Assembly: GCA_949358305.1 (NCBI GenBank)
Contig: OX442314.1
Location: forward strand, 29,202,001-29,266,000
Length of the DNA: 64,000 nt
Reading direction: 5' to 3'
Origin: Strigamia acuminata
Taxonomy: Eukaryota
Positions 18,387-46,128 of the stretch are shown one piece after another; within the stretch, counting starts at the first letter, position 1; each line of letters opens with the position of its first letter. A program made the position numbers and the translations under genes. Under the pieces are notes generated by a model that saw only the letters and a program-made list of their open reading frames with translations, was not told where the DNA came from and did not search any database.

Positions 18387-18404
18387 GGGTTATGGGTCAC
18401 AGCA
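18387..18404 (+). promoter_or_regulatory. Copia primer-binding site, imperfect complement of the anticodon-arm region of initiator tRNA-Met (half-tRNA priming type)
   Basis: GGGTTATGGGTCACAGCA versus the classic copia PBS GGTTATGGGCCCAG, immediately after the 5' LTR. Confidence 0.75.
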
Positions 18405-18538
18405 TCTAACACTGCGTGAGTTTTTGCATCTCGTATCGACTTTTCCGGGCGTTTTGACGAAGGAGTGACCACTGACCGGACCACGAGACGTTAGGCCTAA
18501 TTTCCAACGCGTGGTAGATCGCCAATCAACCTTCAAAA

Positions 18539-22504: not shown

Positions 22505-23024
22505 TGTTTTTCGAATTTCATATGTCTTGCATCAATGTTATATTTCTTGATCTTTTATTGTTCGATTGTATCAGTGTATTTCTGTTATTACTTGCCCATT
22601 TTTAGTTTTTAGTAATGTCATTTATGGATTTTGTATTTCTTTGTTTTTACACATTGACCAGGTGAAGAAGGTGTATGTTATATTTGTATGTCACCAGGCC
22701 CAATGTGCCTAAAATCCCGAATGAGGGTCTCCTACCACTAGGGGGAGTTGGGTGTATTTTTGCCGCTTGTGACCAATGACGTAACGTGAACGTACTTCCG
22801 GTCACTTGTTATTCATGAGACGGCGTGCGCTTAATCTCGTATGCGAATAAAACCTCTCATATCTTATCATCCACGTGAATCCAGTCTTTTCCAAATACAA
22901 CACATTTGACATCACATTTCGAAAATCGGTTTTCCTGAAAACCGTTTTCATGAAAATTAGAAAATCGTGGTTTTCGTGGTTTTCAAATCGTTTTCCCGGG
23001 CCGCCATTTTGAATTCGAATAGAT

Positions 23025-23190: not shown

Positions 23191-24935
23191 CGAAAGCTGC
23201 CGGATCTGTGCTCAATGTTGAAAACCGTTTTCATCGTTTTCGGAAAACGATGTATGACGGTTACGTCATAATGACTAAATTCACCGATAGATGGCGTTTT
23301 CTACTTTTAGCGGCAGATTTAACCAGAATAGAAGATTTAGTGCTAAGACTACATAAAACTGAGTTTTATGTGGAGCTAACATTATATCCTTGTATATTTA
23401 TTAGTTTAGAGGCTTATTGGACCGTTTATGACATTATTCAGAGAATATATCATAAACCCAAGTTGAAAGGTTACTCACCTTTGCGCACCTGCACCAATTA
23501 TGGACACCCTGTGGATTTGAGTCAAAGACTTAATCCAAAGTGTGTCCCCGCTATCCAGTTCCTGTCCTGACCTAGGAGAGAGCTAAGTCCTGGGTATCCA
23601 GTTCCTGTTGAGCATCTGGAAGTCATCTAATTGAGCAAGTGGCCTCAGAATCCGACCTCTCACTCAGTGATTGGAGGGATTCCGAGGACTCATGTCCCCA
23701 TTGGAGCATTGGAAGTTCCATTGTGCTCTAAGAGCATATATTCCCTTACAACCGGAAATACAACGCTCTTGTCATGATATTTGTTGAACACTTACTTACT
23801 TGAGCCCGCATATATATTTATATGCATTCCCCGCCTTAAATGGTGCTGCTTACCATGACCTGTGGTGAAATGCGGATTGTTGCAAGACAATCTTTGGGTG
23901 CTATCGAAACGATGGCGCATCACCAGCCTTTGACTGAGGTTGACGCTACGGATAATGTTGTGTTCCGTGAGTACGACCCTGGATGAGGAAACCTCCATCC
24001 TTGTCTGTGGTCATGACCATCCGGACTGGCGAGGAATTAGGCCTGGACGGGCATTTAGTACTCGCTAGGCTAGGTGACGCCGCGGGATTGGGCGATGGAT
24101 GATGTTTGCCGCCAAATCCTGTGAGGCAGACGGCGACTGTGTGATCGCGAGGATACCGGGCTGAGCGATGGATGACGTTTACCGTTCGGACCCGGTAGGA
24201 TTTCATATTTGTACTTTTACAGCTTGGATTTAGCCAACTCAGTTGTATAAATCATTTCATCGTATCATGATGTAAAACGAAGTTTTACTCACGATAAAGA
24301 ACTCGATTGACACAGAACCGGAAGTAAACATTACAGCAAAACAAATGATAACCAAATTTGCTTGTTGTAATCCAGATGACAACATAATGACCTTTGGCTC
24401 ACGACATATACTCATCGAGTTATGTGTGACGCCGGAATATCATTAATTCCCACATGATGAATTATTTACGTCATACTTGATAACAAAAGTATGCGTAATC
24501 CAAACAGCATAACAGCAATACTCTATGCAAATATCTTAGATATTTACATGAGATTGTGACAATGTGGAATAAGTCAACCGCACAGCCTCGGATACCGCCA
24601 TTACAGAACCGAACCAGAGACCAGTCAGCCCGACGATAGATGACATCTTTTCTCCATGCAAATACGATGTATTGACCCATCTATTTCGGAGCCAAGGACA
24701 CCAATCGTATTCTCATTTGGCCAGCTTTGTAGGCCATTTTATTTATATAACGGAGTTATACTAAATAAATGTTATGTGATTTGAGAAAAACCCACGACTC
24801 CATTTTATTTACACTATTGCAATAATTCACCTTCAGTAATTGTTAAACTTGTTCTCGTGAGCTTTTAGTAGTTTGACATAGCTTTTCTCGACCAGATATT
24901 GTAAAATATTTGCGCCGAAAGAACATTGTCACACG

Positions 24936-24953
24936 TGGAGGTTCTACCGAGAT
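24936..24953 (+). promoter_or_regulatory. Primer-binding site complementary to tRNA-Gln 3' end
   Basis: TGGAGGTTCTACCGAGAT is one mismatch from the reverse complement of the tRNA-Gln end ATCTCGGTGGAACCT-CCA. Confidence 0.85.
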
Positions 24954-25768: not shown

Positions 25769-27820
25769 ATGTCTCGTAGTCACCCCGAAATGTTTGCTTC
25801 CATGAACCAAGGCGCTGAAGACAATACTCATCATTCGTCGGATGATTCTGACGACGAGGGAAATCCTCGAAACGTGGCATACGGCCTGAAAACGTATTGC
25901 CGCCATTTCAAGTTAGACGCTATACGCTTCGCCACGCTGGCAGAAGCCAAGCACTACGTAGCGTTGAATCAGCCAGCTGAAAGTTCGCTGAATCACTCAG
26001 CCACTTCGCCCGATGAATTGATCTTGAATAGGGGGAAATCAAGTGGAAATGCGCCTATTACTTATGCGCAACCACGGGACTTACCCTTATCTCGAGAAAA
26101 TTTGTCATCTCAAGACAATAACCCGCTTCCGCCACGTGTTTCTACACCAATTAGACCCGTTTCACAGGCCGTTGGAGGAAACACAGACGGCGATGCAGGG
26201 TTAGATTTATCGATAAGGGGGAGCCCGACGGAACCCCCATCGATCCTACGGACAGATAACCAAAAAACGCAAGGTAGGCGCCACTCAGTGTCGCCTACTC
26301 GATATAGGATAACTGGTCCCCCAGTCACCGAAAGAGTGGTTTTCAACTCAGATCAAGACTTTTCTCGTTCAAACCCTCGTCACAGAGAGGAGCATCTCCA
26401 ACTGACTTGTCACCAAATAACCAATGGTGGTCAGGATCGCAGTGAGCGAGCTGAGGACACTCAGCAACAGCCAACTCGTCGGGAACCGCTTGGTCAGAGA
26501 CCACGACAGTTCACGGCGAACGCTACTCATCAATCTAACGGCGAAGATTTTTATAATCATGGTAACGGTTCTCAAACCAACCATGGTTATAATTCTCCGA
26601 GCCAAGGGGGACGAAGGAGTTCGACAACTCCTCCCCCCTTTGTTCGCCCTCGCCCAAATTTTCGACCTATCTCGCCACACGGAGTGAGAAGTGATAGACG
26701 TAACGACTCGGACCAAAATTCGAATTTTGTGCCAAGTCTTTCGCGGGAAAATTTGACCGCCATTATTCAGGGGTTGACGGGTCAACCCCCGAGAAATGAG
26801 TCCAATTATCGGCGCAACATCTGTAAGGGATTAGACATCCCTGCATTTGAAGGCCGGCAGGAAGATGTAGCGAGATTTTTAGAGATTACTAAATCTGTCG
26901 CTAGTTTAAAAAGAGTTCCACTTGACGAGATGATCCATGACGTAGTACCCGGCTACCTACTTGGACATGCTCAAACGTGGTACAAAAAAGAATCGCATCG
27001 CTTCTTGAGTTGGGATATTTTCGAGGATGCGTTCTTAGAACGCTTCGATCTAGTCCCTCTCACCAGAGCGCGACAGTTGCGTAACGTAATTCAACGAGCC
27101 GACGAAAGCCTTTATGACTTTCTCTTGCGGTTTTCACAAGCTCAAGGGAAAGTACCTGAAGGCAGTCAAGAGGGAGTGACCCATCTGTACGACAACATCA
27201 CCCCCGAAAGTTTCGCTCTTTTAGTTAACAAGGGGCTTTATGGAAAGAAGACGGTCGATGAAATTATTCATTTCGTCGGTCGTCATCGTTGTATGTTCGA
27301 GACGAGAGCGCAACACTCCGCGCGTCTCAAATACGACAATAGCGACAAGACTTCGGCAACTACTCCCGTAAATGCCAAAGACAGTCGTTTTCCAAATAAA
27401 GCCGCTCTTCGAGCTTCTAAGGTTGATTACTCGTCTAAGACAAGTAAGGAATCCAAAAGCGAAGATGAGCCGGAGAGTGAAGACGAAATGGAGAGACTAT
27501 TCACCACTTATACGGAAAATAAAACGGGCAAGTGTTTTTATTGCCATGAAACTGGGCATTTCAAATGTGAGTGCCCTAAGTGGTTAAATAAGAACAAGAT
27601 GGGTGATGGCGCTAAGCGCCCAAACCCTTCCAACACCTTGTCGGAAGAGAATAAACGGCCTAAACCGAATTGGGTCACCGTCGATTTACTAGACAACAAA
27701 CTAGGAGCTTTTCAGTCAAATATACAAAGCACAATGACTGAGTTGTTGTCCAAGTACTTGCTAGCACCTGCAGCCACCCCAGCTCCATCTATTGAGAAAA
27801 AGGAAACGTCAAAAAACTAG
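25769..27820 (+). CDS. Gypsy A Gag (first ATG 25769)
   Basis: Capsid-like IPAFEG..DVARFL..LLGHAQTWY..WDIFEDAFLERF..QRADESLYDF and CCHC knuckle CFYCHETGHFKCEC. Confidence 0.92.
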   Translation: MSRSHPEMFASMNQGAEDNTHHSSDDSDDEGNPRNVAYGLKTYCRHFKLDAIRFATLAEAKHYVALNQPAESSLNHSATSPDELILNRGKSSGNAPITYAQPRDLPLSRENLSSQDNNPLPPRVSTPIRPVSQAVGGNTDGDAGLDLSIRGSPTEPPSILRTDNQKTQGRRHSVSPTRYRITGPPVTERVVFNSDQDFSRSNPRHREEHLQLTCHQITNGGQDRSERAEDTQQQPTRREPLGQRPRQFTANATHQSNGEDFYNHGNGSQTNHGYNSPSQGGRRSSTTPPPFVRPRPNFRPISPHGVRSDRRNDSDQNSNFVPSLSRENLTAIIQGLTGQPPRNESNYRRNICKGLDIPAFEGRQEDVARFLEITKSVASLKRVPLDEMIHDVVPGYLLGHAQTWYKKESHRFLSWDIFEDAFLERFDLVPLTRARQLRNVIQRADESLYDFLLRFSQAQGKVPEGSQEGVTHLYDNITPESFALLVNKGLYGKKTVDEIIHFVGRHRCMFETRAQHSARLKYDNSDKTSATTPVNAKDSRFPNKAALRASKVDYSSKTSKESKSEDEPESEDEMERLFTTYTENKTGKCFYCHETGHFKCECPKWLNKNKMGDGAKRPNPSNTLSEENKRPKPNWVTVDLLDNKLGAFQSNIQSTMTELLSKYLLAPAATPAPSIEKKETSKN

Positions 27821-27852
27821 TACAGGGGGTTGTGACTTTATCCCAACCCCCC
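27811..27852 (+). promoter_or_regulatory. -1 ribosomal frameshift signal (slippery A_AAA_AAC plus downstream stem-loop)
   Basis: AAAAAAC sits immediately before the gag TAG; GGGGGTTG (27825) pairs with CAACCCCC (~27844-27851); pol is in the -1 frame and open from the slip site. Confidence 0.85.
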
Positions 27853-30800
27853 ACTAATAATTGCCTCCTTCCTTTCTCTGAGTTCACCGATGATTTGTTT
27901 TCACCTCGAAGAGTTGAAATACCAATTATGGACGAACTGGCCGAGGTATTAGGCCAACTTGAACTTTCAGATGAATTAATTCCGATCCGAGATCGCGCAA
28001 CTAGTTCCTCTGGAGGAGTTCAGGAAGGTATTGACTCTATGGCGAAACAAATGGAGCGTATGACTATCTTTAAAGGTCCGTGGAATCGTAAAAAATTCTG
28101 CAACCTCAAAAGATTACATCATGGAGACTCTGTCGAATTTGTAAATGCAGTAAATGGTCGGACTTCCGATACACCTAGGATGCGAATCGAAATCGGAGGA
28201 CTCACCTATAACGCATTAATGGACTCTGGAGCTACTCAATGTTTCATTGGGGCACAGCTTTTGTCTCAGACAAGAGCCCCCAGTGATTATATACAGGAGT
28301 GCCCCCGAGGAATGCGAGTCTGCGCAGTGGGAGTGGATCATCGACCCGTTGGACAAATCACTCTGTGTGTCAAATGGGGAGACGAGAAACAGTTTACACC
28401 CATTAACTTTGTCGTACTGAAAAAAAATGTGTGCGATCTCATAATCGGCCATAATTTCATGCGGCGAACGGGCATCAACTTAAATCCCATGCGGGCAGTA
28501 TTCACCTGCGACAGGCTGCCTGGCTGGACCGCGCCTTACGAAATCGGAGATTTCGAGAGCACACTAGTCGGGTTACATACACTCGCCATTGGCAAAACAC
28601 AGACTCATACACCAGAAAACTGGGCCGATTTATTAGTCCTAGACTGTGACGGCTCAGACGAGCAAAAAGAACAACTTCGGGCTGTAATTTTAGAGGCTAG
28701 AAATGCACTTCGCGACGAAGTCGGTTGTACGCATTTGGCCACACATAGCATTACTTTTAAAAAGGATGCTAAGTGGAAAATTCAGCCATATCGTATGTAC
28801 AACCCCCAGAAGAAAGCGATCATGACTCGTTTGGTCGAGGAACTAGAGGCGGACAACCTGATTGAACCCGTGATAGGCTCCTGTCCATACGTTAGTCATC
28901 CCGTCATCGTTGCAAAACCTGGCGGGAAATACCGCCTGTGTATTGACTATCGTTGGCTGAATGCCATAACGGAGGTAGATGCAATTCAGATGCCTAGCAT
29001 CGACTTGCTCATCCATCATACCAATCACGCGAAGTATTTCTCCTCTCTGGATTTAACCAAAGGATACTACCAAATGGCGATGAATGAAACTGACAAAAAG
29101 AAAACCACTTTTTACACCCCTAAGGGGAAGTTTCAATTCAAGCGCATGCCGTTTGGTCTATGCAACGCTCCAAGCTCCTTTCAGCATTTGATGACTCAAG
29201 TGATGGGAGAAGCTCTACACGAACACGTTTTAGTTTACCTGGATGACCTGATAATTTTCTCAGAAAATTGGGAGGACCATGTTAAACATGTAAAAGACGT
29301 ATTGGAGAGATTAGATAAAGCCAATCTGACGGTCAATAAATCCAAAACCAAGTTGGGACGAACGTCACTAAAGTTTTTGGGTCACCTCATTACACCCGAA
29401 GGGTTAATGGCGGATCCAGATAAGTTAGTGTCGGTAAGGAAGTTTCCTACACCAACGTGCTCTAAAGATATCCAGCGCTTCCATGGTTTGGCAAACTTTT
29501 TTCGTAAATTTATACCAAATCATGCGGAGATTGCGTTACCTTTAACACGTATGATGCACACTAATGCCGTCTTCAACTGGGGCGAAGAGCAAGAAGCAGC
29601 TTTCAATCAAATAAAAGATATTCTGTGTGATGAGCACCAAGTGCTCCACATGCCGGATATGCTGAAACCTTTCGTAGTCATGACAGACGCGTCACATACG
29701 GGACTCGGTGCCGTGTTGTGCCAAGATGTCAATGTATTTAACGAAAGGACGCAGAAGTGGGTTCCTTCGCCAAAACCTGTTGCTTACGCAAGTAGAGTTT
29801 TGCGAGGAGCGGAAGTTCGCTATTCAACACCAGAGTTAGAATGTCTAGCTGTAGTGTGGGCTATAGATCGCTTCAGGCCTTACCTAGAGTATACTACGTT
29901 TACTCTAGAGTCAGATGCACAAGCACTTGGCTGGCTCATGTCAACGCCTGAACCATCGGGACGTTTTGGCCGTTGGGCGGTCAAAATTCAGTGCGGCGCC
30001 TTTAAAATAGTGTTCCGAAAGGGTGCTATGAATCAAGTTGCGGACGCACTGTCTAGAGCACCGCTCTCAGCCTTAGACACACCTGTTACTGACTACCTGG
30101 AACCGGAGGAAATTCATCAATTTTTCCTGACCTGGGTAGGCAACAGGAACACGAGTGTTGTCCCGGACGAGCTCCCACATCCCTTTCTCGCCAACGTTGA
30201 TGTTCGTTTTGATGATTTCTCCGAGTTCAATGAAATCGAAGATTTAATTGATCTTGGAGAAAAGGGGGAAGGAGTAGATAGAAAGGAGACTCTTTTTAGC
30301 GCCCTAACCGACGTGCTGAACGAAGTCCCGCCAACGCGTGCGGAAATCATAGCAGAACAGCTAAAAGATGCTTTTTGTAATAGAATTTTAATTTATTTAA
30401 AATCTAACGAAAAGAAACGAAAAGAATACACTGACCAAGAATGGATTATGTCCATTCAAAGTTACTGTCTTGACGAGAGCGGAGAAGATGGCAGCAGGAT
30501 GCTCATCTGTTTCCAACCAACTTTTGAGGAGGAACTCAATGACTCGGGAAACGGGTTCAAGGCGGTAGTTCCTCGATCTCTCGTGAGACGAGTGCTATTT
30601 GCTTGCCACGGACATCCACTCAGTGGACACGCGGGCATGAGCAAAACGCTTGACAGAGCGAAACAAACATATTTTTGGCCTAAGATGAGCAAAGACACGA
30701 GACATTATGTCCGGGGCTGTGTTCACTGCCAACAATATAAACCAGGGCAACATCGCCAGCGAAGGGCACCTTACACGCCTCACAATATGACGACGCCCTG

Positions 30801-31908
30801 GGAGACAATTTGCATTGACTTGATGAGCCCGAAACCCGCAGGTCGATCGCAATTACAGTGGATCTTTGTAGTGATAGATCAATGCACTAAGTGGATTGAG
30901 CTATTTGCACTAACAAAAGCTACCAGCGAGTCAATCGTAAACAGACTCAGTGAAGTGATTCATCGTTGGGGTTACCCCAAGAAAATCCTTTCTGATAACG
31001 GCAAACAGTTCGTCAGCACTATTTATAATGACTTTTGCAAAAAACATCATATAAATATTTCACACGTAAGCCCCTATCATGCTGCCGCTAATCCAACCGA
31101 AAGGGCCAATAGAAATATCAAAATGATGCTGGCTATTTATTCTGATATTCATTCTAAATGGCCAAGGTTCCTAAACGAATTTGCGTTCGCTTCGCGAACG
31201 GCAAAATCGGAATCATTAGGATTTTCACCAATGATGTTGAATACAGGAAGATCGGTTCCCTTGCCGTTTGATCCACGTGTTTTACAACACGCTATCAAAT
31301 TCGATAAACATAATCCTGAGGAATATGTTTACAGTATTCTTGATGTGCTCCGACGAGCACATCAAGAAATGCACCGGAGAATCCAACTTAATTACGAGCG
31401 TCATGATAGAATACACAGGAATAAGTTTTACATTTGTGAATTCAACATAGGCGATCTAGTTTGGAAGGCGACCCATATCCTGTCCAATAAAGAGAAGGGA
31501 ATCACGGCGGGCTTCGCCGAGAAACGCGACGGCCCTTGGGAGATCACGGCGGTATTAGGAGGTGGCGCCTACACTCTTCGAAAATTGGCGGATGATTCTA
31601 TCGAAGCATCCATTAATATTCAAGATTTGTGTCCCTATATCCCGTCTTATCCTGTAGAAAATTGGTCGGCAGATCAAATTGAAGGTACGGACGATGTACA
31701 CCCCACCCCGAGTTGGATGGAGGAACATTTTCCTAATTCTCTCGAAAAAGGAGATGTCCCCCCGATAACTACGGAAGAACGTACTCTCGCACCCAACAAA
31801 TCCGTAAAAAGAAAGAATTCGTCGCCTGTCAAAAGGTCGAAACGCGTTGCTAAACCCAACAAGAAATATGATGATTTTGTATCAAAAATCCAGATCGGTA
31901 AATTATAA
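27832..31908 (+). CDS. Gypsy A Pol (PR-RT-RH-IN)
   Basis: ALMDSGA; LDLTKGYYQ, MPFGLCNAPSSFQ, YLDDLII; MTDAS, ELECLAVVWA; HGHPLSGHAG..CVHCQ, IDLM/SDNG/TER; KRDGPW. Confidence 0.97.
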   Translation: MTLSQPPTNNCLLPFSEFTDDLFSPRRVEIPIMDELAEVLGQLELSDELIPIRDRATSSSGGVQEGIDSMAKQMERMTIFKGPWNRKKFCNLKRLHHGDSVEFVNAVNGRTSDTPRMRIEIGGLTYNALMDSGATQCFIGAQLLSQTRAPSDYIQECPRGMRVCAVGVDHRPVGQITLCVKWGDEKQFTPINFVVLKKNVCDLIIGHNFMRRTGINLNPMRAVFTCDRLPGWTAPYEIGDFESTLVGLHTLAIGKTQTHTPENWADLLVLDCDGSDEQKEQLRAVILEARNALRDEVGCTHLATHSITFKKDAKWKIQPYRMYNPQKKAIMTRLVEELEADNLIEPVIGSCPYVSHPVIVAKPGGKYRLCIDYRWLNAITEVDAIQMPSIDLLIHHTNHAKYFSSLDLTKGYYQMAMNETDKKKTTFYTPKGKFQFKRMPFGLCNAPSSFQHLMTQVMGEALHEHVLVYLDDLIIFSENWEDHVKHVKDVLERLDKANLTVNKSKTKLGRTSLKFLGHLITPEGLMADPDKLVSVRKFPTPTCSKDIQRFHGLANFFRKFIPNHAEIALPLTRMMHTNAVFNWGEEQEAAFNQIKDILCDEHQVLHMPDMLKPFVVMTDASHTGLGAVLCQDVNVFNERTQKWVPSPKPVAYASRVLRGAEVRYSTPELECLAVVWAIDRFRPYLEYTTFTLESDAQALGWLMSTPEPSGRFGRWAVKIQCGAFKIVFRKGAMNQVADALSRAPLSALDTPVTDYLEPEEIHQFFLTWVGNRNTSVVPDELPHPFLANVDVRFDDFSEFNEIEDLIDLGEKGEGVDRKETLFSALTDVLNEVPPTRAEIIAEQLKDAFCNRILIYLKSNEKKRKEYTDQEWIMSIQSYCLDESGEDGSRMLICFQPTFEEELNDSGNGFKAVVPRSLVRRVLFACHGHPLSGHAGMSKTLDRAKQTYFWPKMSKDTRHYVRGCVHCQQYKPGQHRQRRAPYTPHNMTTPWETICIDLMSPKPAGRSQLQWIFVVIDQCTKWIELFALTKATSESIVNRLSEVIHRWGYPKKILSDNGKQFVSTIYNDFCKKHHINISHVSPYHAAANPTERANRNIKMMLAIYSDIHSKWPRFLNEFAFASRTAKSESLGFSPMMLNTGRSVPLPFDPRVLQHAIKFDKHNPEEYVYSILDVLRRAHQEMHRRIQLNYERHDRIHRNKFYICEFNIGDLVWKATHILSNKEKGITAGFAEKRDGPWEITAVLGGGAYTLRKLADDSIEASINIQDLCPYIPSYPVENWSADQIEGTDDVHPTPSWMEEHFPNSLEKGDVPPITTEERTLAPNKSVKRKNSSPVKRSKRVAKPNKKYDDFVSKIQIGKL

Positions 31909-32891
31909 ATTTCTAAGAAATATATAATTTTATCGAGTTGAGCATGCAAAATAATTTACATAGATGCGCTTACTCCCTATTATTTCTTTGAAATATTTGG
32001 AGTTAAAATTAACAACCAATCAGAGTAATCGCCGATTATCGAGACACCTGTTTGGAGAGTTATGTCCAGTCACTCTCGTTTTACGAAACGGCTGAACAAA
32101 CATCTTCTTGAGCGACTTCTCGTAGATTATCATCGTCAATCTTATGTAAGATATTCGTATTATATTTCTTTCAAAGAATATAAGACAAATATTCACTTAT
32201 TTATTTAGCAAACTCAACGAATAAGGATTTTAGTCGAGTTTTCACCGACCACGACCTTCGACCCAGTTACCGTCAGCTGACTATCGGCACTTCGCTCGTT
32301 AGTCATCCACTTGGAATTTTGCCGTAAGAATAACATTGTTTTATATATATATTTCGTATTATATTCGACAATTATACTCAGACTGTTGCTTTGAAAAATA
32401 CGTAGTATTTTCCGGTAAATACGACGAGACCACTTCTTACGAAACCAACTCGTGTTCAAAAGCTTCAACGCACTTTGAACTGAATTCTTTTTGCTATCAA
32501 CGGAATCATGAGTGGTAAATATTGTTTAAATCTCAGAGTTAAATAATACATGCAAAAAATTGAATAAGGTTATGAATTCACGAACGGGAATATTTTAAAT
32601 TACGTGTCTCAGTTATTAGTGTCGAAAATCCTCACTAGAGGACGCCGACGGATAAATGAACATCTAAGATCGAGATAACCCGATTTGTTTTCTGCCACTT
32701 ATTTTCCATTTTTCGGAATAAGTTGATTATGTTGTTTTAGTCTTGGACTTATACAGAATAATCAATACACTTGCTTAGTATTTCTTTTATCTCTCGAAAT
32801 TGTATTATGCATCTTTTTAAAGAATTCATAAGGCAATTTACGACTGTCTGAATTTAATTAATAATTCTGAGAATTATTAATATTTCTTTAG

Positions 32892-34756
32892 GTAGAGATA
32901 AAGATTATCGCCAAGACGGGAGTAAGCGCAGGCGAGAGCCTTACGATCACTCACCTTCCTCAACTGACTCAAGCGAACGAAGGCGAAACGAGAGTAAAAA
33001 TCCACGAGCATCGGATTCTTCCACGGAAAGAAATCGTGCCATTATAGATTGGGCACAGAGTAATGTGCCGAAACTACCGTTGCACCTTCAGTACATAGTC
33101 AAGAAACAGGAGGAACCCAAACCGGCTAAAGCGTCGTCATCCCACGTCTCGAAACACGAAAAACCTCCGCGAGATAAGTTTTACTGGGCGCATCAATATC
33201 GATCGACTTCACGCGGGTACAACACTAAGCGGTATTACGACCAAGACAATAAGGCATCGTCATCAAAAAAGGAGAACAGGCCCAAGACTCCACCCAAGGC
33301 AGAACCTTCGCGAGCAACCACCCGTCAGCGATCCCCTGCTCGTTACGTGACTTACACAACGGACACTGTCACCGAGCCGGCTGCTGTAACTAGCAAGAGA
33401 GCGATCCACCATCATGGCGGATTTCAGGGACCAGACGCCACGGTGAAGGTGACCATCCCTAATCCCGAGTTCATCACCTTGGAGGCACCTAAAGTCGAGA
33501 ATCCTCAACACATTATTGATGTATTGACCAACGCCGCCAAGGGATTAAAGCTGGAAACGGGAAGAAAGCGCAAGCAAGAGCGTGCCAGGCAGGATATCGC
33601 TGCTGGTGTACCACAAGGACGATTGGTGACGGCAGAAAACGAAGCCTGCTGTCCCTTTTGCTCGGGAACGGGCTGGGCAGTTGGCGCCGCGATTGGAGCC
33701 CACGCCATTTTATGCCCCAACTGCGGTGGCTTTAAGAAGAGACCCAAGGATGCCATTTGGAATCCAGAAGCAATTCCTTACATTGTGCGTGGACTGAGCA
33801 CGATGACACCAAGGGTATGGGCCACTTGTGACCCATGCCAATTGGTGCACAATCAATTAGGAGAGGCCATCTTTATAGATCCTAGATTTATAGGCCTCAT
33901 GGACACGCCCGATGGTACTGCTACAGTGAAGTGGACGCGCGAGGATGTCCGTCGCTTAGCGACGGAAACCATCGCGTTAAAAAAGAAACAAGTCCAACAG
34001 CAGCAGGTTCAACCCGCCAAGAAGGAAGACCCGAGCGTCAATTTGGGAGCATCGTGCAGTCACGTCGAGACACCAGAGATGATCGACGTCACGACACTCG
34101 AAGCGTCATTCGCCGCCCAGGCTGCATTGCCAAAGGAAAACTCAACGAAGTTGATTTTCCCCCCGACATCTGCGAAGGTCAAACGACGTCCACGGACCCC
34201 CGTCGTCATTTTGGCTCCTTTCGTCAAGCCCGAAGGACTGACCAACGAGGAGGCAGCGAAATTGGAAATTTGTCACTATGTACCAACACTGTGGGAAACA
34301 GCTGCCGAGATCTCTTTCGACCTGTCCAAAGGACGACAACCGAGCTTTCAAAATGCGGTATTAATTATGCAATGGATTCTAAATCGTGAGCGTGAGGAAT
34401 CCTTCGACGTCTTATCCAATATATGGATCAGCTTAGCTAACCATATCTCGGAGAATAGAGATGAGGACATCAGGGCCGATTGGTACCAAGGTTTGCCAGA
34501 TCCCAGAACCGTGTACGACCGTTTTCCCAGGGCGGACAGAATTCCCCTAGCCAGTCTTCGCGTGGCACCGCCACCAATCACCGAGCCTTTTTTAGTCGAT
34601 CCTCCACGACTAGCTGAAGAAGAACTGAGGGCTGTATCTCCGAATTCAGTCGCATCCACCGACTTAGTCATGGATTTGACTGCCCCACCGTCAGCACCTC
34701 TGGCGGAAAGTGAGGACTCAGACGTGTCGGCGAAGGCGGGACCCGAATTACCGTAG
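32892..34756 (+). CDS. Gypsy A ORF3: unknown accessory protein, not env-like; frame open back to a splice acceptor at 32890-32891
   Basis: 563 codons from GTG 33065 plus 58 more open codons upstream to TTTCTTTAG|; CPFCSGTG...CPNCGG zinc-ribbon-like motif; basic GRKRKQER; no hydrophobic TM stretch. Confidence 0.8.
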
Positions 34757-37700
34757 ATAGGGATTCGAGTTCACCGCCAACCTCGACGACAGACGGACCG
34801 ACTTGGAATCACCCTTGCTATTTTGTTTAGCGTTCCTTTATTATTTGAAGTTAACATTTAATCAGTTCTTGTCTAACCTGGTGTTTTATAATAATTTTAG
34901 TCTAACCAATTATTGTTGTCTTTTTGATTTAAGATTTATTTTGTTTGATGTAACCTTTGGAACTTCTGTTCAATTTTCTAACCTTAAACTATTTTGTTTT
35001 TTGATGTGGATCCGCCGCTGAATTTCAGAGAAAAACAAGACGGCCACACAAGATATTTAATTGTGTTAACAGTTTGCTAATTTCTAGATTTATGTGTTTG
35101 TTTCTTGAGGAAGAATAAAGAGTTTTAGTTTTTTGTTTGAACATCCCAAAAGTGATGGCTATACTTTTTTCGTAGAAAAAATTAAAGCAGTATCTATTAA
35201 GATAATTCTTACAAATAATTAAAGGAGGGTTTAACACTCGCAGATGAAGGCCGCGCCGGAACCCCAACAACTTATAAAGCAATTAAACCGACATTTAGTC
35301 ATTTATAAAGATTGTATCAATCAGGAATTACGGAGTAGTTCCATTGATAAGGGGGACGTATGACGGTTACGTCATAATGACTAAATTCACCGATAGATGG
35401 CGTTTTCTACTTTTAGCGGCAGATTTAACCAGAATAGAAGATTTAGTGCTAAGACTACATAAAACTGAGTTTTATGTGGAGCTAACATTATATCCTTGTA
35501 TATTTATTAGTTTAGAGGCTTATTGGACCGTTTATGACATTATTCAGAGAATATATCATAAACCCAAGTTGAAAGGTTACTCACCTTTGCGCACCTGCAC
35601 CAATTATGGACACCCTGTGGATTTGAGTCAAAGACTTAATCCAAAGTGTGTCCCCGCTATCCAGTTCCTGTCCTGACCTAGGAGAGAGCTAAGTCCTGGG
35701 TATCCAGTTCCTGTTGAGCATCTGGAAGTCATCTAATTGAGCAAGTGGCCTCAGAATCCGACCTCTCACTCAGTGATTGGAGGGATTCCGAGGACTCATG
35801 TCCCCATTGGAGCATTGGAAGTTCCATTGTGCTCTAAGAGCATATATTCCCTTACAACCGGAAATACAACGCTCTTGTCATGATATTTGTTGAACACTTA
35901 CTTACTTGAGCCCGCATATATATTTATATGCATTCCCCGCCTTAAATGGTGCTGCTTACCATGACCTGTGGTGAAATGCGGATTGTTGCAAGACAATCTT
36001 TGGGTGCTATCGAAACGATGGCGCATCACCAGCCTTTGACTGAGGTTGACGCTACGGATAATGTTGTGTTCCGTGAGTACGACCCTGGATGAGGAAACCT
36101 CCATCCTTGTCTGTGGTCATGACCATCCGGACTGGCGAGGAATTAGGCCTGGACGGGCATTTAGTACTCGCTAGGCTAGGTGACGCCGCGGGATTGGGCG
36201 ATGGATGATGTTTGCCGCCAAATCCTGTGAGGCAGACGGCGACTGTGTGATCGCGAGGATACCGGGCTGAGCGATGGATGACGTTTACCGTTCGGACCCG
36301 GTAGGATTTCATATTTGTACTTTTACAGCTTGGATTTAGCCAACTCAGTTGTATAAATCATTTCATCGTATCATGATGTAAAACGAAGTTTTACTCACGA
36401 TAAAGAACTCGATTGACACAGAACCGGAAGTAAACATTACAGCAAAACAAATGATAACCAAATTTGCTTGTTGTAATCCAGATGACAACATAATGACCTT
36501 TGGCTCACGACATATACTCATCGAGTTATGTGTGACGCCGGAATATCATTAATTCCCACATGATGAATTATTTACGTCATACTTGATAACAAAAGTATGC
36601 GTAATCCAAACAGCATAACAGCAATACTCTATGCAAATATCTTAGATATTTACATGAGATTGTGACAATGTGGAATAAGTCAACCGCACAGCCTCGGATA
36701 CCGCCATTACAGAACCGAACCAGAGACCAGTCAGCCCGACGATAGATGACATCTTTTCTCCATGCGAATACGATGTATTGACCCATCTATTTCGGAGCCA
36801 AGGACACCAATCGTATTCTCATTTGGCCAGCTTTGTAGGCCATTTTATTTATATAACGGAGTTATACTAAATAAATGTTATGTGATTTGAGAAAAACCCA
36901 CGACTCCATTTTATTTACACTATTGCAATAATTCACCTTCAGTAATTGTTAAACTTGTTCTCGTGAGCTTTTAGTAGTTTGACATAGCTTTTCTCGACCA
37001 GATATTGTAAAATATTTGCGCCGAAAGAACATTGTCACAGATGAAAAACGGTTTTTGAAAGCTATTTTAGAGTTGAATGCACTTATTGATTTTATTGAAT
37101 CAATGTCCTAATAATAATCAATAAGTTATACTTATCCGCGAAGAGAACCAATTGAGCTCTTCTTAAAGATTTAGCCCTATCGTTAAAGCTGGCATCCGAT
37201 TGGCTGCTTTTAATCCTTCTGTTCTCTAGAACATATACTATAAGCTCTGGTTTTCACCGGAACTTTGCTTTTTGTTCTGTTTTGTTAGTCATGTCCATTT
37301 TATTGTTAGTTCGTATTACTTCGTATTACTTCACTTTTGCGCACATCTTAGCTTATCTCGCGTAGGTTAGTTAGGTTTATCTTTTAAGGCTAATATTATG
37401 CTAATATTTTCGGCCAATGGTAGAATTGTTACAACTTTATCTCACACACAGTTCACTATTTTTCCCTTGTCAGCCTTATCTCGAACTTAAGAAGTTTGAC
37501 TGAATGACTGAATTGGCTAACAAGTATGTATGTTAAAATACTAGCGCCACAAATTAATTAAATAAATCACGAATGACTATAAATTTCCTGTGAGTTCAAG
37601 CATGAACCAAGGTTAACATGGGCACGTATCCGTGTGTTATTTCCTATTGATTCATGTTCTGTGCGCTGATTGGATGACAGCAATTACGCGTTGCTTGCCA

Positions 37701-38338
37701 AACTAAGCATATTTCTTACCTTTTGTCATCCCAGAATACAGTGCGGCTATATATTATGTGAAGCCATCGGTGGCAAAACGCTCGGAACTTGTGGATACAT
37801 GTCCATGTTATTCTTGGTTTTATAGTTCAAGGCTATCATCATATAAATCATCACAAATTCTCTGCCAAAAAAAGAACGAGTTGGGCCTTTCGTTTGTCGA
37901 TATATTCCAAACCGATAAAACCTAGTCCAAACTCTCATTTGGTGAGTCGTTTCACTGGTGTAGTGGCACAAGAAAGTAGCCCATTACACCAGAATTGTTT
38001 CCGCCATTTTCCACGCGCAATGGTTGTTGCGTCTTCTTTTATTATTCTGTTCTTTTCAGTATTTCATTGTCATTGTTAGCTTATTATTATTCATTATTAT
38101 TATTGTGATTGTATTTATTCCATTCAACAAATTATTTTTTTGTTTTTTACTAATGTACTTACTAGTGTACTTACTTATTAACCTGTAGACATTATTAACC
38201 ATTCTATTTTAGGACTAAGACGGTTTTACTGCAACTGAACTGTGAATATAAATCCGGATCACAGCAACTAGACTGCCAATAGCACGAGTTAAGCTAGTGT
38301 TCGAAAGTTGTCATTACCGTAGTAGAATTTGATGCAAA

Positions 38339-41300
38339 ATGACTGTGGTGAAAGCTCTTAGGCTACGTCGAAGTCATATTCGTCGTTTTGTACGGCAAGA
38401 AATGCAAACTTCCCTGTCAGGCAATGATAGTTTGAAGTTTATTGATAATGTTTTCAACAAAAATAAGAGTAGTTTAGTCCGGGCAGTTTGGTTCGTTGTT
38501 TTGATCATTTGTGGCATCATTTGTTGTTACCAGACAATAGAAAGAATCCAATTCTACATTGATGGACATATCAAAGTTGAAATTGAATATGTTCCAATAG
38601 GTGAAATGACGTTCCCAGAAATGAGGTTCTTTGGTCTCGATACCGGATCTTTGTCTGAATACTGGAAAGAAATGGAAGGTTCTTCAATGAGAAACAACCT
38701 CAAAAGATTACCCGTTGTTTGTGTTTTGCCACTGAAAGGAATGATTTCTGCAGCAGTGAAAATTGAAAATTATACAGATTTTTGGTTAAAAAGCAACATT
38801 TCAAGCAATTTACAGCACATCAAGATAAGACAGGTATTTAATCCTATTATTTTCTTAATACCTGATGGGATATTATGTTGATATTATGTATTGTCACCAC
38901 ATAAAATTGTTCTAGTAATTGTTAGCTTTTAATGATAAAAGTTATGGTTGTATTGCTACCAATGCTATTGCTACTGATGTCGTCATGCAGCTTTCACATT
39001 TTCCCCTTAGCAACGGTCGGCCAGGAAAAGAAACAATAAAAAGTTGCTTCTTTTTTATGGTATGTGGAATGAAAATTATTCACACTCCTGCTCTTGTGCA
39101 CAACTGGACTCCCTGGTGTCGTATGCATACACACGTAAATCATGAGACAGGGACTACAGTGTTAGTTGTTGGCCTTTAATCCGTTGTCTAGGGTTGGAGT
39201 TTCCCATCTACCCACGTGCTAGCGAAGGCACGCTACACTAGTGACTGACCCGTCATACACCGGGTGGGAACCCCATGGATGACGTGGTCAAACATAACAT
39301 TCTGCCGTAGTCACCTGTACGACCCAGGCAACCGCTCATGGAGGCTGTAGTGGACTCATCGTCACACTACTGAGCGTTGCAGTGGTGACTGGGGAGGAGA
39401 GCAGAGTCAGCACGGGGCACGACTGCCCTTGCTGTGTTATTCAGGAACAAAGCTGTGACAGTGGTGATCAGTGTGAGGTGTAGGCAAAGAGTGAGTACCG
39501 GTAATAAACGAATTAATTACTCAAAATTTGGCCGAAAAGTTGGCCCAATACGCATGCGTTGCGTGGCGTGTGCCCGGGCACACTTCATGCCTAGCAATGG
39601 TGCAAATTAGGGCTTCGCCTTAGCAACCCCCTAGTTTGGCAATTTGGTTGCTGCAGTTGCAACTGCTTCTGTTAAACAGCCGAAAGCATAGCAGGTGCAG
39701 AATAACTACAAGCGATGTTATTACATAATTTTAAGATCAAATATATAAATTTCTCCCAAATGTTGAAGGGACATTTGGGGTCACAACAACCTCCGTCTCG
39801 ATTGGGACCCAGCTCTCTTCTCTCTCTCTCCACACCACTCAGCTCCCTCCTTCCCTATACAGTCGACTCTGCGAGGAGGGATGACCTGAGGGCCGTTGGG
39901 TGGCGTGTGGCAGTGACGCTGGTCACCTGTGGGTGGCCAAGCGGTCACAGTTCATAAAAAGTTATAAGTCATATGTTCATACGTTTGGTGAAAGAATTTT
40001 AATAAAGGGGGGACACATAACATGAAAGCCAAGTGCAGATCGTATCTCGGTACAGGTGCCCTCTACTTGATTATCAGCGTCAAATGTATGTGTAGTGTGC
40101 ATTTTATACGTATACAGTAATCTGCTGAATTACACCTATAATCGTATAACTTTTCAGGGTAAAACTGTATTGCATGAAACAACAATTAAAGAAGGAATTT
40201 CTAGAAAGGATAACACAAACATTTCACTAAGCTATCGAAATGATGTAACTGGACGATCTTTGGTCTTTACTTCTGGTTAGAATTAAAAACAAAATAAAAT
40301 AATTTTGAGGTTTTAATATTTTTGGCTAAATCTATAGATCGAAAATTATCACTCAATATGAAATTCCACATACTCTTTAAAACGAATAGAACCAACTGTG
40401 TCAACCCACAGATTACGGTAAGAATCTCATCCTTTACTATTTTATTGGAGTTTGTAACTTATACTTTTATTTTTACACTTTTGAATATTAGATGAGTAGG
40501 ATAGTTAGCGTCATGTCTTACCAATACACTTTGTCGGTGGCGTCAGGAATTGAATCAGATGTTCAATTTTTTATTCGAAGTGTAAGCTCAATTACGTTAA
40601 AGATATTGAGAAATTTGTAGTGCATCACAAAAGTGTATAAGTTTGAATATATCAGATATCAGCTTTTCAATCTTGTTTATTGTGATGGATCACCAAAAAT
40701 AGTAATGCTGCATTTGTTTTTTGGTAGTATCAATTTTTAGCTTCGAGACATCCCTATTGTGAACCAGATAAGAAAAAGGAAACCCAATGCTACGAAGATT
40801 GTGTGAGGAAAAAAACTCCTCAACGATGCAGGTCTAATTGCATGCAACATCTAAATATTGTTAAACTCATAGATTTTTGGCTTACCAGGTTGCCTTTTAT
40901 GTCCAACAAAAATTTGATGGATTGCAGTTTAGAGTCAAACAAATCAATTGTGGCTGAAATGTATGAAGAAGCATTTTTCCATGAAACAACTACACTGCCA
41001 TCGTTTGAATGTGGTTGCTTGAGATCTTGTGAACGGAATGTTTATTTGTTTGCATTATATTCTGATACAGGTTAAACTATAATATCTTATATTTTTATGC
41101 ATAATTCTCAAAATTATTATGTTTTAAGTTAGATTTTCAAGATGAACCAAATGGCAAAGATCTAATAAGTCTCAATCTAAAAGTGTTGGAAGAATTGTTT
41201 GTCAGAATGACAGAAACCTACATTTACACCATTCCAAACTTATTGATCGATTTTGGGGGCAATTTGGGATTCTCCTTGGGACTTTCTCTTCTGTCTTTAA

Positions 41301-41809
41301 TTGAAATTGCACAAATGTTTCTTCTCATTTTGTCTAAATATATCAGACCTGCTCAACTTAAAGGGAGCATAAAAAAGAAAACTACCAAGTTAATGCATTT
41401 GGTCATTGACAAAAAGAAAGATGTTTCTCAAAGTGTGATGCAGCAGCCACAAAAAAAACTTCTACTGCAATCTACATTGAATTTAATTCTAATATTTACT
41501 TCTGCAATATTGGCAGTTTATGTGAGCAAAGAAAGAATCACATTATATATGAGTGAGCCGACAAGATATGTGGTAATTATTCAAGAAAATCACACATTGT
41601 ATTTACCCAATTTAATTGCGTGTAAGGATGGACCATTAATGACTAAATACAGGCGAACATATGCTAAAGAAATAGGCATGATTGAATGCAAGATTCATTT
41701 TATCAATTTAATGAACATGACTAAAAATCATAAAAAACCATCAATAGAAGATGTGTGGCGATTCCAAACGCCTCAGATGAATAAAGGAGCAATGGACAAT
41801 GCCTATTTT
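38339..41809 (+). CDS. DEG/ENaC double-unit gene copy 2 (5' exons through the TM2-linker-TM1 exon; remainder displaced by nested insertions beyond 42253)
   Basis: Colinear near-identical paralogue of 4969-7987, introns included; homology runs from CACGAGTTAAGCTAG (4912/38283) to TTATCTAT (8428/42250). Confidence 0.85.
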
Positions 41810-42252
41810 GTAAGTATTCCTCTAAAAATGGGTTCACATCTGCATATACATCGCGGATACTTGCCTCAAAATTGCGATGTTACGCATGTGTGGACCCATC
41901 TTGATACACATAATAACGTATCGTCAACTTACAAAAGGTTTATAAACCAAATAAAATTTTGAGCACTAACGACAAATATTAGTCAAAAGTGAATTTAGTT
42001 GTTATTGTATGGCAATAAAGGGCGCCAATATCAAGGATTGAGTACGAATGCACCCAGTATTCTGCATCCAATCACATTATTGCGAGATTATGCATATACA
42101 TGTATACAGCAGGTCCTCAACTTTTGAACTACCGTAGTACAGTTACAAGAACTTGTTCTTCTGTCAAGGATGTACACAGTGAAAAAATTGTTCACCCCAG
42201 TAAGGAAAACATTTTTGAATCCTATTTTTTTTCTATGATTTTTTATCTATAA

Positions 42253-42416
42253 TGCTGGGCGCAGACATACCGCGATTTCGCGTCGCGTCGCGATCGCGTT
42301 ACCATTGCGCATGTGCAGGTGACGTTGTCGCATTCAACTCGGTCTGTCGCTAATACGTGGTATGAGTCACTCTCTAATTTCGCAATACCGCTTTACTCAA
42401 GCGGTTACCCAAATAA
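42253..42416. mobile_element. Left end of a probable TIR element (Harbinger-like, inserted after TAA)
   Basis: Homology to copy 1 stops abruptly at TAA|TGCTGGGCGCAGAC followed by CGCGA/TCGCG repeats; the other end is not in the window. Confidence 0.4.
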
Positions 42417-43359: not shown

Positions 43360-46128
43360 TCAATCCTTCTTGCTGGGACCCGACGCTGGATCCATCGCCT
43401 GGGCGAAACTCACTCCAGGGACGGGCGGCTCAGCGCCGGGCGGCACAACGCCGGGCGGCAAAACCAGATCTCCAACCAAGGCTGAAGACTGGTCGCGGGG
43501 GTCCTCGTGCTCGGAAATAAAGCACAATTCGTGGCCGCCGGCTGGCTCGTACGGGGCACGTCTCCTCTCATGCAGCCAAACCCGCGGAATGAACGCCGAA
43601 AACCCGGAATTGGTGTGCCGGATCGCGTTCGCCTCCGCGGCTGTTCGGGGCGCACGATGGGCCCTCAGCAAACGCTGATGGAGGATCAAATCGGTGGTCT
43701 GGCGCACCTGGTTGTGTAGCCAAACAAATACCGATTTCCCTTTGTCTCTCTGGGCGAGAATGAACTTCCGCGTCGCTGTCGTCATCGACAGCTGAGAGAA
43801 CTCGTCACATAACTTCTCATAATAGTTCGTCTGAGGTTTCGCCGCTTTCGCTGGCTTGGCGCTCTTCGGAACTACCGCCTGCTTGACCGTCTCTTCCCGT
43901 GCTTCTTGGGCTGCGGGAGGCGTCAGGCTTTGGCGAGCGGCGGACATCGTTGGCGGCGTCCGGCACAGCAGGCGTCTCGGCTTACCCGCCGCATTTGATA
44001 GGACGGGTGTCTGTGGTGCCGCCGCTGGTGGCATCGGTGGCGGCGGCGGAGGTGGAGTTGGGGCTCCACGTGAAGCAGTCGAAGAGGCGGCGTCGCTCTC
44101 CATCGGCTCTTCACTCGTGACCATCATCGCGCACGGCTGCGTCGATGGTGTCGGCGCCCACGTGGTAACGGCGTGGCGGAAGGCCATGCTCCGCAACTTG
44201 TACCCCTCCCATTCGGGGTTCACCACGTCCCGGGTCAGCTCGAATCGAGTCATCGCCGGGTTGGGGAGAATGGCGCTCCATTCCCCAACAAGTGCACGAG
44301 GTATCTGTACACCTTCTCGGTCTACGACGGACCAGCAGGCCATCGCCTGTCGCCCGACCCCAAAGAGCGAAGGGGTTAACAGCTGGACCATGATTTCGGT
44401 CAAGGCCAGCTGCAGACGACGGCGGTTTACTGGATTGCTGCGGTCGGAATCCTCAGCGAACGCACGCGAGTGATGTCGCATCATCGAAATTCCCCACTCG
44501 ATGAAATGGCGCTGAGTGACGTCGGCGCCCTGCAGAGCAGCGGCGGCGGCCCTCGGGTCCTCCATCACGAATGAGAAGGCCAAGAGCTCTTCGATCGATG
44601 GATTGGCTGCTTCTCGAGCCAGCCGTGCGTTTTCGTCACGCTGTTCATACCACATCGCGGTGCGGTCGTGTCTTGCCGTGCTCGGGTAATATTCTCCGGT
44701 CCGGGCGTTATGGCATTCCCGCGCAATACTCAGGTGCACGGGCAACATCACAGAGTCGTCGACGGCCAAGTCCGGCGTAGTGCTCGAACCTGGCATCGGC
44801 GGCGGCGGCGGCGGAGGCTGCGTCGGCGGCGGCAGCGTCAATGACTGCTGTGCCGGCAACGGCAGCGTCGCTTGCGTCTCAGTCGCCGTGACCTGAGGCG
44901 CCGGAGTGGGTGTAACGGTGCTCGTCGGCGGAACGACGGCCGTGGGTCGCGAATTCACATATTCGCTCAACCACCGTGCCACTTCGTGTGGAATCACGGT
45001 ACCATCCTCGACGATGCCCATCTTGCGGGCGAACTGCATCGCGGGGTCGAAACGCGACAATTTCTTGCGTTTCATCTGAGTGATGATCTCGCGAAGGTCC
45101 CGTGTGTCTGGCGCTAGGACGCGACGCTCTCCGGAAGATCTGCCACTCGACTTCGATCGTGCTTCTCTCGCTTCCTTCGCTTCTATTGCTTTGAGAGCGT
45201 GTTCGGGAAGGGGAATTCCCCGCGCCTCGCAGCGAGCGAAATACCGCTCTTTGCGGTCTTGTTTCCGCTGCTCACGATGAGTCAGCGGGCGTCTGCCGGC
45301 ACGGGGACGAGAGACTCGCTCTTCGTCACCCGAAATCCAGACTTCTCGAGTCTCTTTACCGTCTTTCATCTGACGGTTGACAAACACCCTTGGTCTGGTG
45401 TAATTCGCGGAGTCGCGCGGTGGCTGCGCTGACGTTCCCGCTCCATCGTTTACGGTCGAGTGCCTTTCGACGCACTGTTTCTTCGACCGGCCCGGGGAGC
45501 GCGATTCGCTGCCCCCGGTTCCCTTAGAGCGCTTGCGCTTCCGTGGGAAATTATATTTGGGACCGAGAATTCCCAAATAATGTAACTGCCACATTTCGGC
45601 TTGTGACGTGAGAATCCCCATTCTCGGTCGCCACTGTGGCGTAACTTCTCCTCGCCGAATCTGCTCGCACCACAGATGTATGTCTGCGGTACTCATGCCT
45701 TCGTCCTGCAAGATACGCTCTGCAACCGCCGGCGCAGTGTCAATTAGCTGCTGGCGGTAGTGTTGATACACTTCTTCGCGGGCCTCCTCGGTCTCGGCCG
45801 CTTGCCACGCGAACAACACATGTTCCTCCACTGGCCTGCCGGAGTATTGGCTCGACAGGGCCGAGTGGAAGATTGGCGACTTTGGGTCGTCGCTGCGAGC
45901 TAACTCTGCAGCGACAACAGCTCGAACCGGCTCCGGAAATGCATCCAGGAGAGAGCAGTCACCTACCCATCGCTTGGCGAGGGCGCGCGAAAATAATACG
46001 CGAATGCGATATGGATTGGCATCACCGCCAAAACAACGGCGGAGAAAATCGGGCAAGACGCCTCGATAAATGCCAGCCCGCACAATGCATGCGGGGCTGA
46101 GCGCTCCCCACGTGTTTCGGAGCTCCAT
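43360..46128 (-). CDS. Gypsy B accessory ORF (~920 aa, unknown function, Pro/Arg-rich, not env-like)
   Basis: Long ORF ending 40 bp before the 3' LTR, starting right after TTTTGTTTTCCATCATTGCAG|ATG; NLS-like PRKRKRSK; poly-Pro tracts; no TM segment. Confidence 0.85.
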   Translation of the reverse strand: MELRNTWGALSPACIVRAGIYRGVLPDFLRRCFGGDANPYRIRVLFSRALAKRWVGDCSLLDAFPEPVRAVVAAELARSDDPKSPIFHSALSSQYSGRPVEEHVLFAWQAAETEEAREEVYQHYRQQLIDTAPAVAERILQDEGMSTADIHLWCEQIRRGEVTPQWRPRMGILTSQAEMWQLHYLGILGPKYNFPRKRKRSKGTGGSESRSPGRSKKQCVERHSTVNDGAGTSAQPPRDSANYTRPRVFVNRQMKDGKETREVWISGDEERVSRPRAGRRPLTHREQRKQDRKERYFARCEARGIPLPEHALKAIEAKEAREARSKSSGRSSGERRVLAPDTRDLREIITQMKRKKLSRFDPAMQFARKMGIVEDGTVIPHEVARWLSEYVNSRPTAVVPPTSTVTPTPAPQVTATETQATLPLPAQQSLTLPPPTQPPPPPPPMPGSSTTPDLAVDDSVMLPVHLSIARECHNARTGEYYPSTARHDRTAMWYEQRDENARLAREAANPSIEELLAFSFVMEDPRAAAAALQGADVTQRHFIEWGISMMRHHSRAFAEDSDRSNPVNRRRLQLALTEIMVQLLTPSLFGVGRQAMACWSVVDREGVQIPRALVGEWSAILPNPAMTRFELTRDVVNPEWEGYKLRSMAFRHAVTTWAPTPSTQPCAMMVTSEEPMESDAASSTASRGAPTPPPPPPPMPPAAAPQTPVLSNAAGKPRRLLCRTPPTMSAARQSLTPPAAQEAREETVKQAVVPKSAKPAKAAKPQTNYYEKLCDEFSQLSMTTATRKFILAQRDKGKSVFVWLHNQVRQTTDLILHQRLLRAHRAPRTAAEANAIRHTNSGFSAFIPRVWLHERRRAPYEPAGGHELCFISEHEDPRDQSSALVGDLVLPPGVVPPGAEPPVPGVSFAQAMDPASGPSKKD

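Follow-up and report, generated by a model that had tools for sequence, protein, structure and literature searches.

The window analyzed here is a 64,000-nt stretch of the genome of Strigamia acuminata (assembly GCA_949358305.1, contig OX442314.1, positions 29,202,001 to 29,266,000 of the forward strand), and all coordinates below are counted from its first nucleotide. Strigamia is a geophilomorph centipede genus. The window contains a 13.8-kb Ty3/Gypsy long terminal repeat (LTR) retrotransposon, called element A, that possesses both LTRs, a target-site duplication (TSD), a primer-binding site (PBS), a polypurine tract (PPT), gag, and pol in the order protease, reverse transcriptase, RNase H and integrase (PR-RT-RH-IN). 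Beyond pol, it carries a third open reading frame (ORF3). Judged from sequence comparison, this centipede-type Gypsy lineage has in ORF3 a conserved accessory gene, and not an envelope gene.

Element A lies on the plus strand. Its 5′ LTR (23253–24933, 1681 bp) has the ends TATGAC...GTCACA, and the element is flanked by the TSD GATG (23249–23252 and 37040–37043). The PBS (24936–24953) starts 2 nt past the 5′ LTR and is, we assume, of the tRNA-Gln type. The gag gene (25769–27820) encodes a Retrotrans_gag domain with one CCHC knuckle, and a slippery site, AAAAAAC (27811–27817), is found immediately 5′ of its stop codon; the intact pol (27796–31908) is in the −1 frame relative to gag. An AT-rich spacer (31909–32891) separates pol from the main exon of ORF3 (32892–34756; 620 codons counted from 32894), and the PPT and 3′ LTR follow at 35350–37039, with the LTR itself at 35359–37039. 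Because the LTRs are nearly identical, with one mismatch in 1680 compared bases, element A inserted very recently. Among named proteins, Strigamia maritima T1IZB8 is closest to its pol (51–52% identity).

ORF3 and its homologues

The initial annotation of this DNA proposed an open frame of more than 600 codons in the env position, lacking an early ATG. We found that the frame extends for 632 codons from stop to stop (32858–34756, plus strand), about 1 kb past pol, and that its first in-frame ATG is located at 33803 (codon 316), past two of three CxxC pairs. At the local base composition, the probability that 620 codons remain open by chance is about 1e-12.

With residue 1 placed at 32894, the predicted protein consists of long low-complexity linkers, a basic helix that precedes a cysteine (Cys) module, and a helical C-terminal bundle (residues ~481–550; 34334–34543) modeled at a predicted local distance difference test score (pLDDT) of 61–78. 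The conserved core (residues 212–345; 33527–33928) includes the basic helix with RKRK, the motif AG[IV]P and three CxxC pairs. The basic GRKRKQER stretch noted initially is present, its RKRK occupying residues 224–227, and both CxxC pairs of the motif CPFCSGTG...CPNCGG were correctly recognized, although they are spaced by 13 residues and not by 12. A third, conserved CxxC (CDPC, residues 312–315) had been missed, so that the pairs begin at residues 253, 274 and 312 (33650–33661, 33713–33724 and 33827–33838). The N-terminus is indeed rich in Ser (15%), Arg (13%) and Lys (11%), but it is not a serine/arginine (SR) domain; with only four RS/SR dipeptides, the reading as an SR protein was ruled out. 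As proposed, no transmembrane (TM) helix is found (best 19-residue Kyte-Doolittle mean, 1.27), and a search of ORF3 for a furin site (R-x-K/R-R) or a signal-type segment identified neither.

A phmmer search of 1.84 billion proteins returned four matches to ORF3, all of them Strigamia maritima gene models (P0121–P0124), and a profile search added a fifth Strigamia homologue (P0125), its sole match among 7995 candidates. When ORF3 alone was the query of a word-index search, there was no match among 8000 candidates. In P0121 and P0122, pol pieces of the element A lineage (37–63% identity to its pol) are followed by the ORF3 core, which aligns with ours at 35–36% identity over 130 amino acids (aa) (phmmer E = 1e-21 and 1e-19). 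All six core cysteines are kept in these two models, four in P0123 and two in P0124, and the region of the basic helix with RKRK is also conserved in the Strigamia models at the level of the motif. P0122 weakly matches the C-terminal helical part as well (35% over 40 aa, pairwise E = 0.002), while in P0125 pol is followed by just the N-terminal portion of the Strigamia protein, without a direct match to the ORF3 of element A. P0123 is a short stand-alone homologue with a weak, sub-threshold match to DnaJ (E = 0.05). In P0124 (T1IGT0), the half of the core with the third CxxC sits behind a MULE transposase domain, which is probably a chimeric gene model formed from nested elements.

ORF3 diverges faster than pol, with a core identity of about 35% compared to 51–63% for the best pol segments. 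Protein searches recovered no homologue of host type from other organisms, and viral contigs held no match for ORF3, for the pol alignment or for the ORF3 of the sister element C described below. A metagenome scan with the pol alignment recovered 80 distant Gypsy loci, none of which had an ORF3 homologue (0/80). With homologues past pol in Strigamia and no envelope, host-gene or family match, the data supports the earlier proposal of a non-env accessory gene, and ORF3 is very probably a real, functional one.

ORF3 matched no NCBIfam family and no Pfam family above the cut-off; even with E relaxed to 1, Pfam returned neither Gypsy env nor baculovirus F. Its top sub-threshold Pfam match was the anti-TRAP/DnaJ-type CxxCxGxG zinc finger (E = 0.0065; 16.9 bits against a cut-off of 32); this identity was rejected, the score being below the cut-off and the full CxxCxGxG pattern being present in the first CxxC alone. 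Neither the whole protein nor its core had a usable match in the protein atlas, and PDB sequences gave two matches at the chance level (E = 0.77). Fold searches with the ORF3 models returned generic helices or coiled coil only, and barely tested the Cys module because its model is poor; matches to the C-terminal bundle were similarly generic and helical (best Z, 9.1), and none of the BFVD viral folds matched at E <0.001. An Rfam search gave no match. No literature on the ORF3 protein was found in a search that did not extend to supplements and Repbase/Dfam-type catalogues, and the main text of PMC13524379 contains no occurrence of Strigamia or centipede. The protein family appears to be undescribed, although an annotation of it may have escaped notice.

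In three of four public data sets (X1–X3), contigs cover all 30 bins of element A and the depth of ORF3 is similar to that of pol, so that ORF3 belongs to the regular make-up of the family. Each of two diverged contig pieces of ORF3 has 39 substitutions and no gaps (hand count among 32 of 1730 rows), while gag-pol pieces also have no gaps and LTR/leader pieces have 40 gaps and 226 substitutions (again among 32 of 1730 rows). In X1 and X2, we also observed two ORF3 haplotype classes (33202–34833) that are 10–13% apart and whose depths sum to that of the near-uniform pol contigs, which suggests recombination or fast turnover of ORF3.

Predicted splicing and the start of translation

Without splicing, translation of ORF3 would start past two CxxC pairs. 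Splicing is therefore favored and, based on these sequence features, ORF3 is likely made from a spliced mRNA. The acceptor AG at 32890–32891, singled out by the initial annotation, is the best-scoring of the four spacer acceptors above the cut-off when scored with a rough matrix. The donors reported in the spacer are likewise found (GTAAG at 32146 and 32324, GTAAA at 32415 and 32515). A CCAAT box reported near 32016 is present at 32014–32022, but at the chance level (3 in the window compared to 4.65 expected).

Three short introns are predicted in the spacer on the plus strand (32146–32208, 63 nt; 32324–32381, 58 nt; 32515–32891, 377 nt), together with exons at 32209–32323 and 32382–32514 that have no ATG before 32508. 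These candidate upstream exons were picked after inspection, and 111 of 5000 shuffles were as free of ATG. A 7-nt first coding exon is predicted at 32508–32514 (an ATG, one codon and one base), ending in phase 1 and thereby fitting the acceptor at 32891; the ATG at 32508 with the donor at 32515 is the only ATG-to-donor solution in the spacer that fits the acceptor's phase. This exon would place Met-Ser ahead of the Gly-Arg at the start of the frame. P0122 and P0125, which both cover the start of ORF3, have Met-Gly-Arg there. Two spacer ATG-ORFs of 43 and 48 aa showed no TM stretch by eye.

The genomic RNA carries strong donors and acceptors at 25249, 26274 and 25666 and within the spacer. The strong phase-1 donor at 26274 in gag (score 9.0), the strongest in-phase donor among those listed, also fits the ORF3 acceptor and gives an open 789-aa fusion. 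Splicing of the spacer introns, with the 7-nt exon giving the start codon, is the arrangement that we consider somewhat probable. A fusion of a gag exon to ORF3 is rather unlikely, and any other arrangement of the start is more doubtful still.

Sister element C and neighboring repeats

Element C is a sister Gypsy element on the minus strand (43360–46152 and 60187–63999), with a pol that is 37% identical to that of element A. It has the same layout as element A and its own intact 922-codon ORF3 (ORF3-C), whose ATG lies directly behind a strong acceptor at 46128; candidate upstream exons in phase 0 are located at 59708–59613 and 59439–59380 on the minus strand. ORF3-C lacks CxxC pairs and a TM segment, matches neither Pfam nor NCBIfam, and is unrelated to the ORF3 of element A (best E = 0.31; profile score, −1 bit). 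A basic helix before ‘GIP’ in ORF3-C, resembling that of element A, was considered and found not significant. Unrelated ORF3s thus occupy the same layout and, therefore, it is the slot and not the protein that is common to the lineage. A motif at 60047–60055 in element C, presumably YY1-like, occurs 3 times in the window compared to 0.44 expected.

Element B (46306–58990, plus strand) is a young LTR element inserted into the pol-ORF3 spacer of element C. Its LTRs are 99.8% identical, its TSD is CAAT, and it has an internal 3.26-kb duplication and no long pol frame. Elements A and B share the non-canonical ends TATGAC...GTCACA (5′ TA, not TG), and both (ends at 23253, 37039, 46306 and 58990) have 4-bp TSDs and 2-nt spacers at the PBS and PPT. 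A 501-codon ORF in element B (54976–56481) contains a repeated motif that matches the N-terminal motif of element A's Gag (E = 6e-07). Directly upstream of element A is an intact Copia element (18158–22902, plus strand) with a 1328-codon frame, short LTRs that are 99.6% identical and no MBD match. The window also contains a duplicated host segment with DEG/ENaC (ASC) channel exons (4912–8431 and 38283–42253; 88–96% identical and 33.8 kb apart), nested long inverted repeats (9048–10677 and 15697–16252) that are probably miniature inverted-repeat transposable elements or foldback elements, and 21-bp tandem arrays at 710–1205 and 3961–4514.

Function of ORF3 and related systems

Because ORF3 has no family, structure or fold match, a proposal for its function has to rest on its anatomy. 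Its basic helix, the RKRK resembling a nuclear localization signal and the Cys module suggest that it is probably a nuclear regulator of its own element; the initial annotation likewise proposed a nuclear accessory protein (transactivator, RNA export factor or anti-silencing factor), three roles that the sequence does not tell apart. More specifically, we favor, with a probability of roughly 0.35, a trans-acting nuclear protein that binds zinc and helps the unspliced genomic RNA to leave the nucleus, in the manner of HIV Rev and nematode CERV. According to this proposal, splicing would remove the spacer introns and the 7-nt exon would provide the start codon; the basic helix and RKRK would carry ORF3 into the nucleus and contact nucleic acid; the Cys module would bind zinc; and the target would be the intron-containing genomic RNA. 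Export is favored because the genomic RNA carries many splice signals and because there is a precedent in CERV of the Caenorhabditis elegans element Cer1, a 517-aa Gypsy accessory protein that is translated from a spliced transcript and carries both a KRKK signal and a candidate C4 finger (PMC10309623).

A strongly folding RNA at the 3′ end of pol (31150–31430, plus strand) is a weak candidate for a response element. It has the best folding score of 173 windows (z = −5.6; 0 of 200 shuffles). The reverse strand folds equally well (z = −6.0), and the matching place in element C has a z of −2.5. Overall, gag-pol (25769–31908) is more structured than its shuffles (mean z = −1.2), and z is −2.5 or lower in 30 of the 173 windows, 24 of which start in gag-pol.

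Several observations weigh against an export factor or, more broadly, against a needed gene. Both structure models of ORF3 are poor (mean pLDDT of 42 and 52), and no family, solved structure or fold from the Pfam, NCBIfam, PDB and fold searches backs any function. A leucine-rich export signal was sought in ORF3, yielding two loose pattern matches and no clear conserved one, and sister element C does not encode a homologue of this ORF3, an unexpected absence if the protein were essential for export. The Strigamia homologues are automatic gene models and not genomic sequence, their likeness to the N-terminus of ORF3 produced no BLAST segment, and, with four donors available, one fitting ATG-donor pair could well arise by chance. 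In addition, one diverged haplotype breaks off at 33592, at a joint of equal depth that jumps over 33593–33692 (a net loss of 98 nt); the first CxxC is thereby lost and the reading frame shifts. Between about one quarter and one third of the depth in runs X1 and X2, which come from one study, belongs to this deletion haplotype, and it is absent in X3; its joint rests on sides of only 30 nt. Thus, as to whether ORF3 is conserved among copies, a point on which the initial annotation had staked its proposal, the copies diverge without gaps, but one haplotype class appears to lose part of the Cys module through a frameshifting deletion, against a strict need for ORF3. If the deletion is real, ORF3 would be dispensable in cis, as expected either for a factor acting in trans or for a gene of modest importance. 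The persistence of a copy class with a broken ORF3 fits action in trans.

ORF3 could instead be a family-specific anti-silencing factor or transactivator that binds the element's DNA or chromatin and sustains its transcription despite host methylation, comparable to VANC of VANDAL elements or the Tas protein of foamy viruses. Strigamia methylates its transposons (PMC6673714), and VANC proteins are family-specific (PMC6719617), which fits the unrelated ORF3s of sister elements A and C. The faster divergence of ORF3 relative to pol points in the same direction, as do the two ORF3 haplotypes, which are 10–13% apart although the listed gag-pol pieces on which they sit are less than about 4% divergent. 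Element A also shows no CpG depletion (observed/expected ratio of 0.9–1.1), but the neighboring Copia is equally CpG-high (1.31) and, consequently, CpG content says nothing specific; no DNA-binding family was matched in Pfam, and the CCAAT box is at the chance level. We consider this role somewhat unlikely, with Rev/CERV-like export ranked slightly ahead of it. It is unlikely that ORF3 acts in the cytoplasm or on the particle, as a small-RNA silencing suppressor or a particle-transport adaptor, even though the gag donor at 26274 would allow a splice fusion of the Gag N-terminus to ORF3 and element B carries stand-alone repeats of the Gag N-terminal motif. The Met directly before Gly-Arg in the Strigamia models favors an own start, and the absence of a TM segment argues against a FAST/sORF2-type fusogen (10.1101/2025.03.14.642691).

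A fragment captured from a host gene, such as a DnaJ-type zinc finger, that does little for the element would account for the weak sub-threshold anti-TRAP/DnaJ matches of ORF3 and P0123, for the stand-alone P0123, for the position of P0124 behind a MULE domain and for the broken copy class. Such an origin is nevertheless improbable: no host-type homologue was found in other organisms, ORF3 has been kept past pol though pol itself is only about half identical, and its copies diverge without gaps. The env gene of gypsy is located after pol and is expressed by splicing, and ORF3 resembles it in both respects. The reading of ORF3 as a highly diverged envelope protein is still close to refuted, as ORF3 has neither a signal-type or TM segment nor a furin site, and matched no Pfam env family and no viral fold at E <0.001.

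Non-env ORF3s are already known (PMC5408684), and so is a spliced Gypsy export factor, CERV (PMC10309623). ORF3 and CERV are both invertebrate Gypsy accessory proteins of similar size, with a basic putative nuclear localization signal and a candidate zinc finger, and both are fast-evolving and lineage-restricted. CERV differs in having exons 1–3 shared with gag, a G-protein-like domain, an export signal and no homology outside nematodes (PMC10309623), whereas ORF3 lies after pol, has three CxxC and shows no G-like fold in its poor models; the two were compared by description, and the matches to ORF3 included no nematode proteins. In bdelloid rotifers, Juno and Vesta similarly have a family-specific third ORF in the env slot that is unrelated between neighboring families. 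Theirs are captured enzymes, a GDSL esterase and a DEDDy exonuclease (PMC5408684), whereas ORF3 matches no enzyme family.

VANC21 and VANC6 of Arabidopsis VANDAL (PMC6719617) are also transposon-encoded, family-specific accessory proteins in a host lineage that methylates transposons, but VANDALs are DNA transposons, VANC has no sequence link to ORF3, and an anti-silencing role of ORF3 is hypothetical. CopiaMBD of Strigamia (PMC6673714) is another centipede LTR element with an added conserved, chromatin-linked domain; it is a Copia with a host-derived MBD inside its polyprotein, whereas ORF3 forms an orphan gene of its own within a Gypsy. The Errantivirus env and MDG1 sORF2 are extra genes of Gypsy elements, with env in the same slot, but both are membrane fusogens (PMC13524379, 10.1101/2025.03.14.642691). 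ORF3, with 620 aa and no TM helix, does not belong to the sORF2/FAST class of small ORFs with a TM helix and polybasic tail, nor to the env-bearing Errantivirus class, having no TM anchor, furin site, or homology to env or baculovirus F. ORF3 cannot at present be placed with either CERV or VANC, and element A is a Gypsy element that falls outside the env and FAST classes.

How invertebrate LTR elements export their unspliced RNA and escape silencing is poorly known; among the papers found, CERV alone had been tested as an export factor of an invertebrate LTR element, and the anti-silencing proteins come from plants. ORF3 provides a concrete, conserved and intact candidate with a defined core (residues 212–345), predicted junctions and a natural deletion class, and the second, unrelated ORF3 in sister element C adds a comparison case. 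Tentatively, each family in this centipede Gypsy lineage may, as in complex retroviruses, carry an intron-containing post-pol cassette for its own large regulatory protein, a new three-CxxC family in element A and an unrelated 922-aa protein in element C, quickly swapped and diversified. ORF3 would then represent a novel factor, Rev-like or anti-silencing, that arose independently in a transposon-methylating arthropod.
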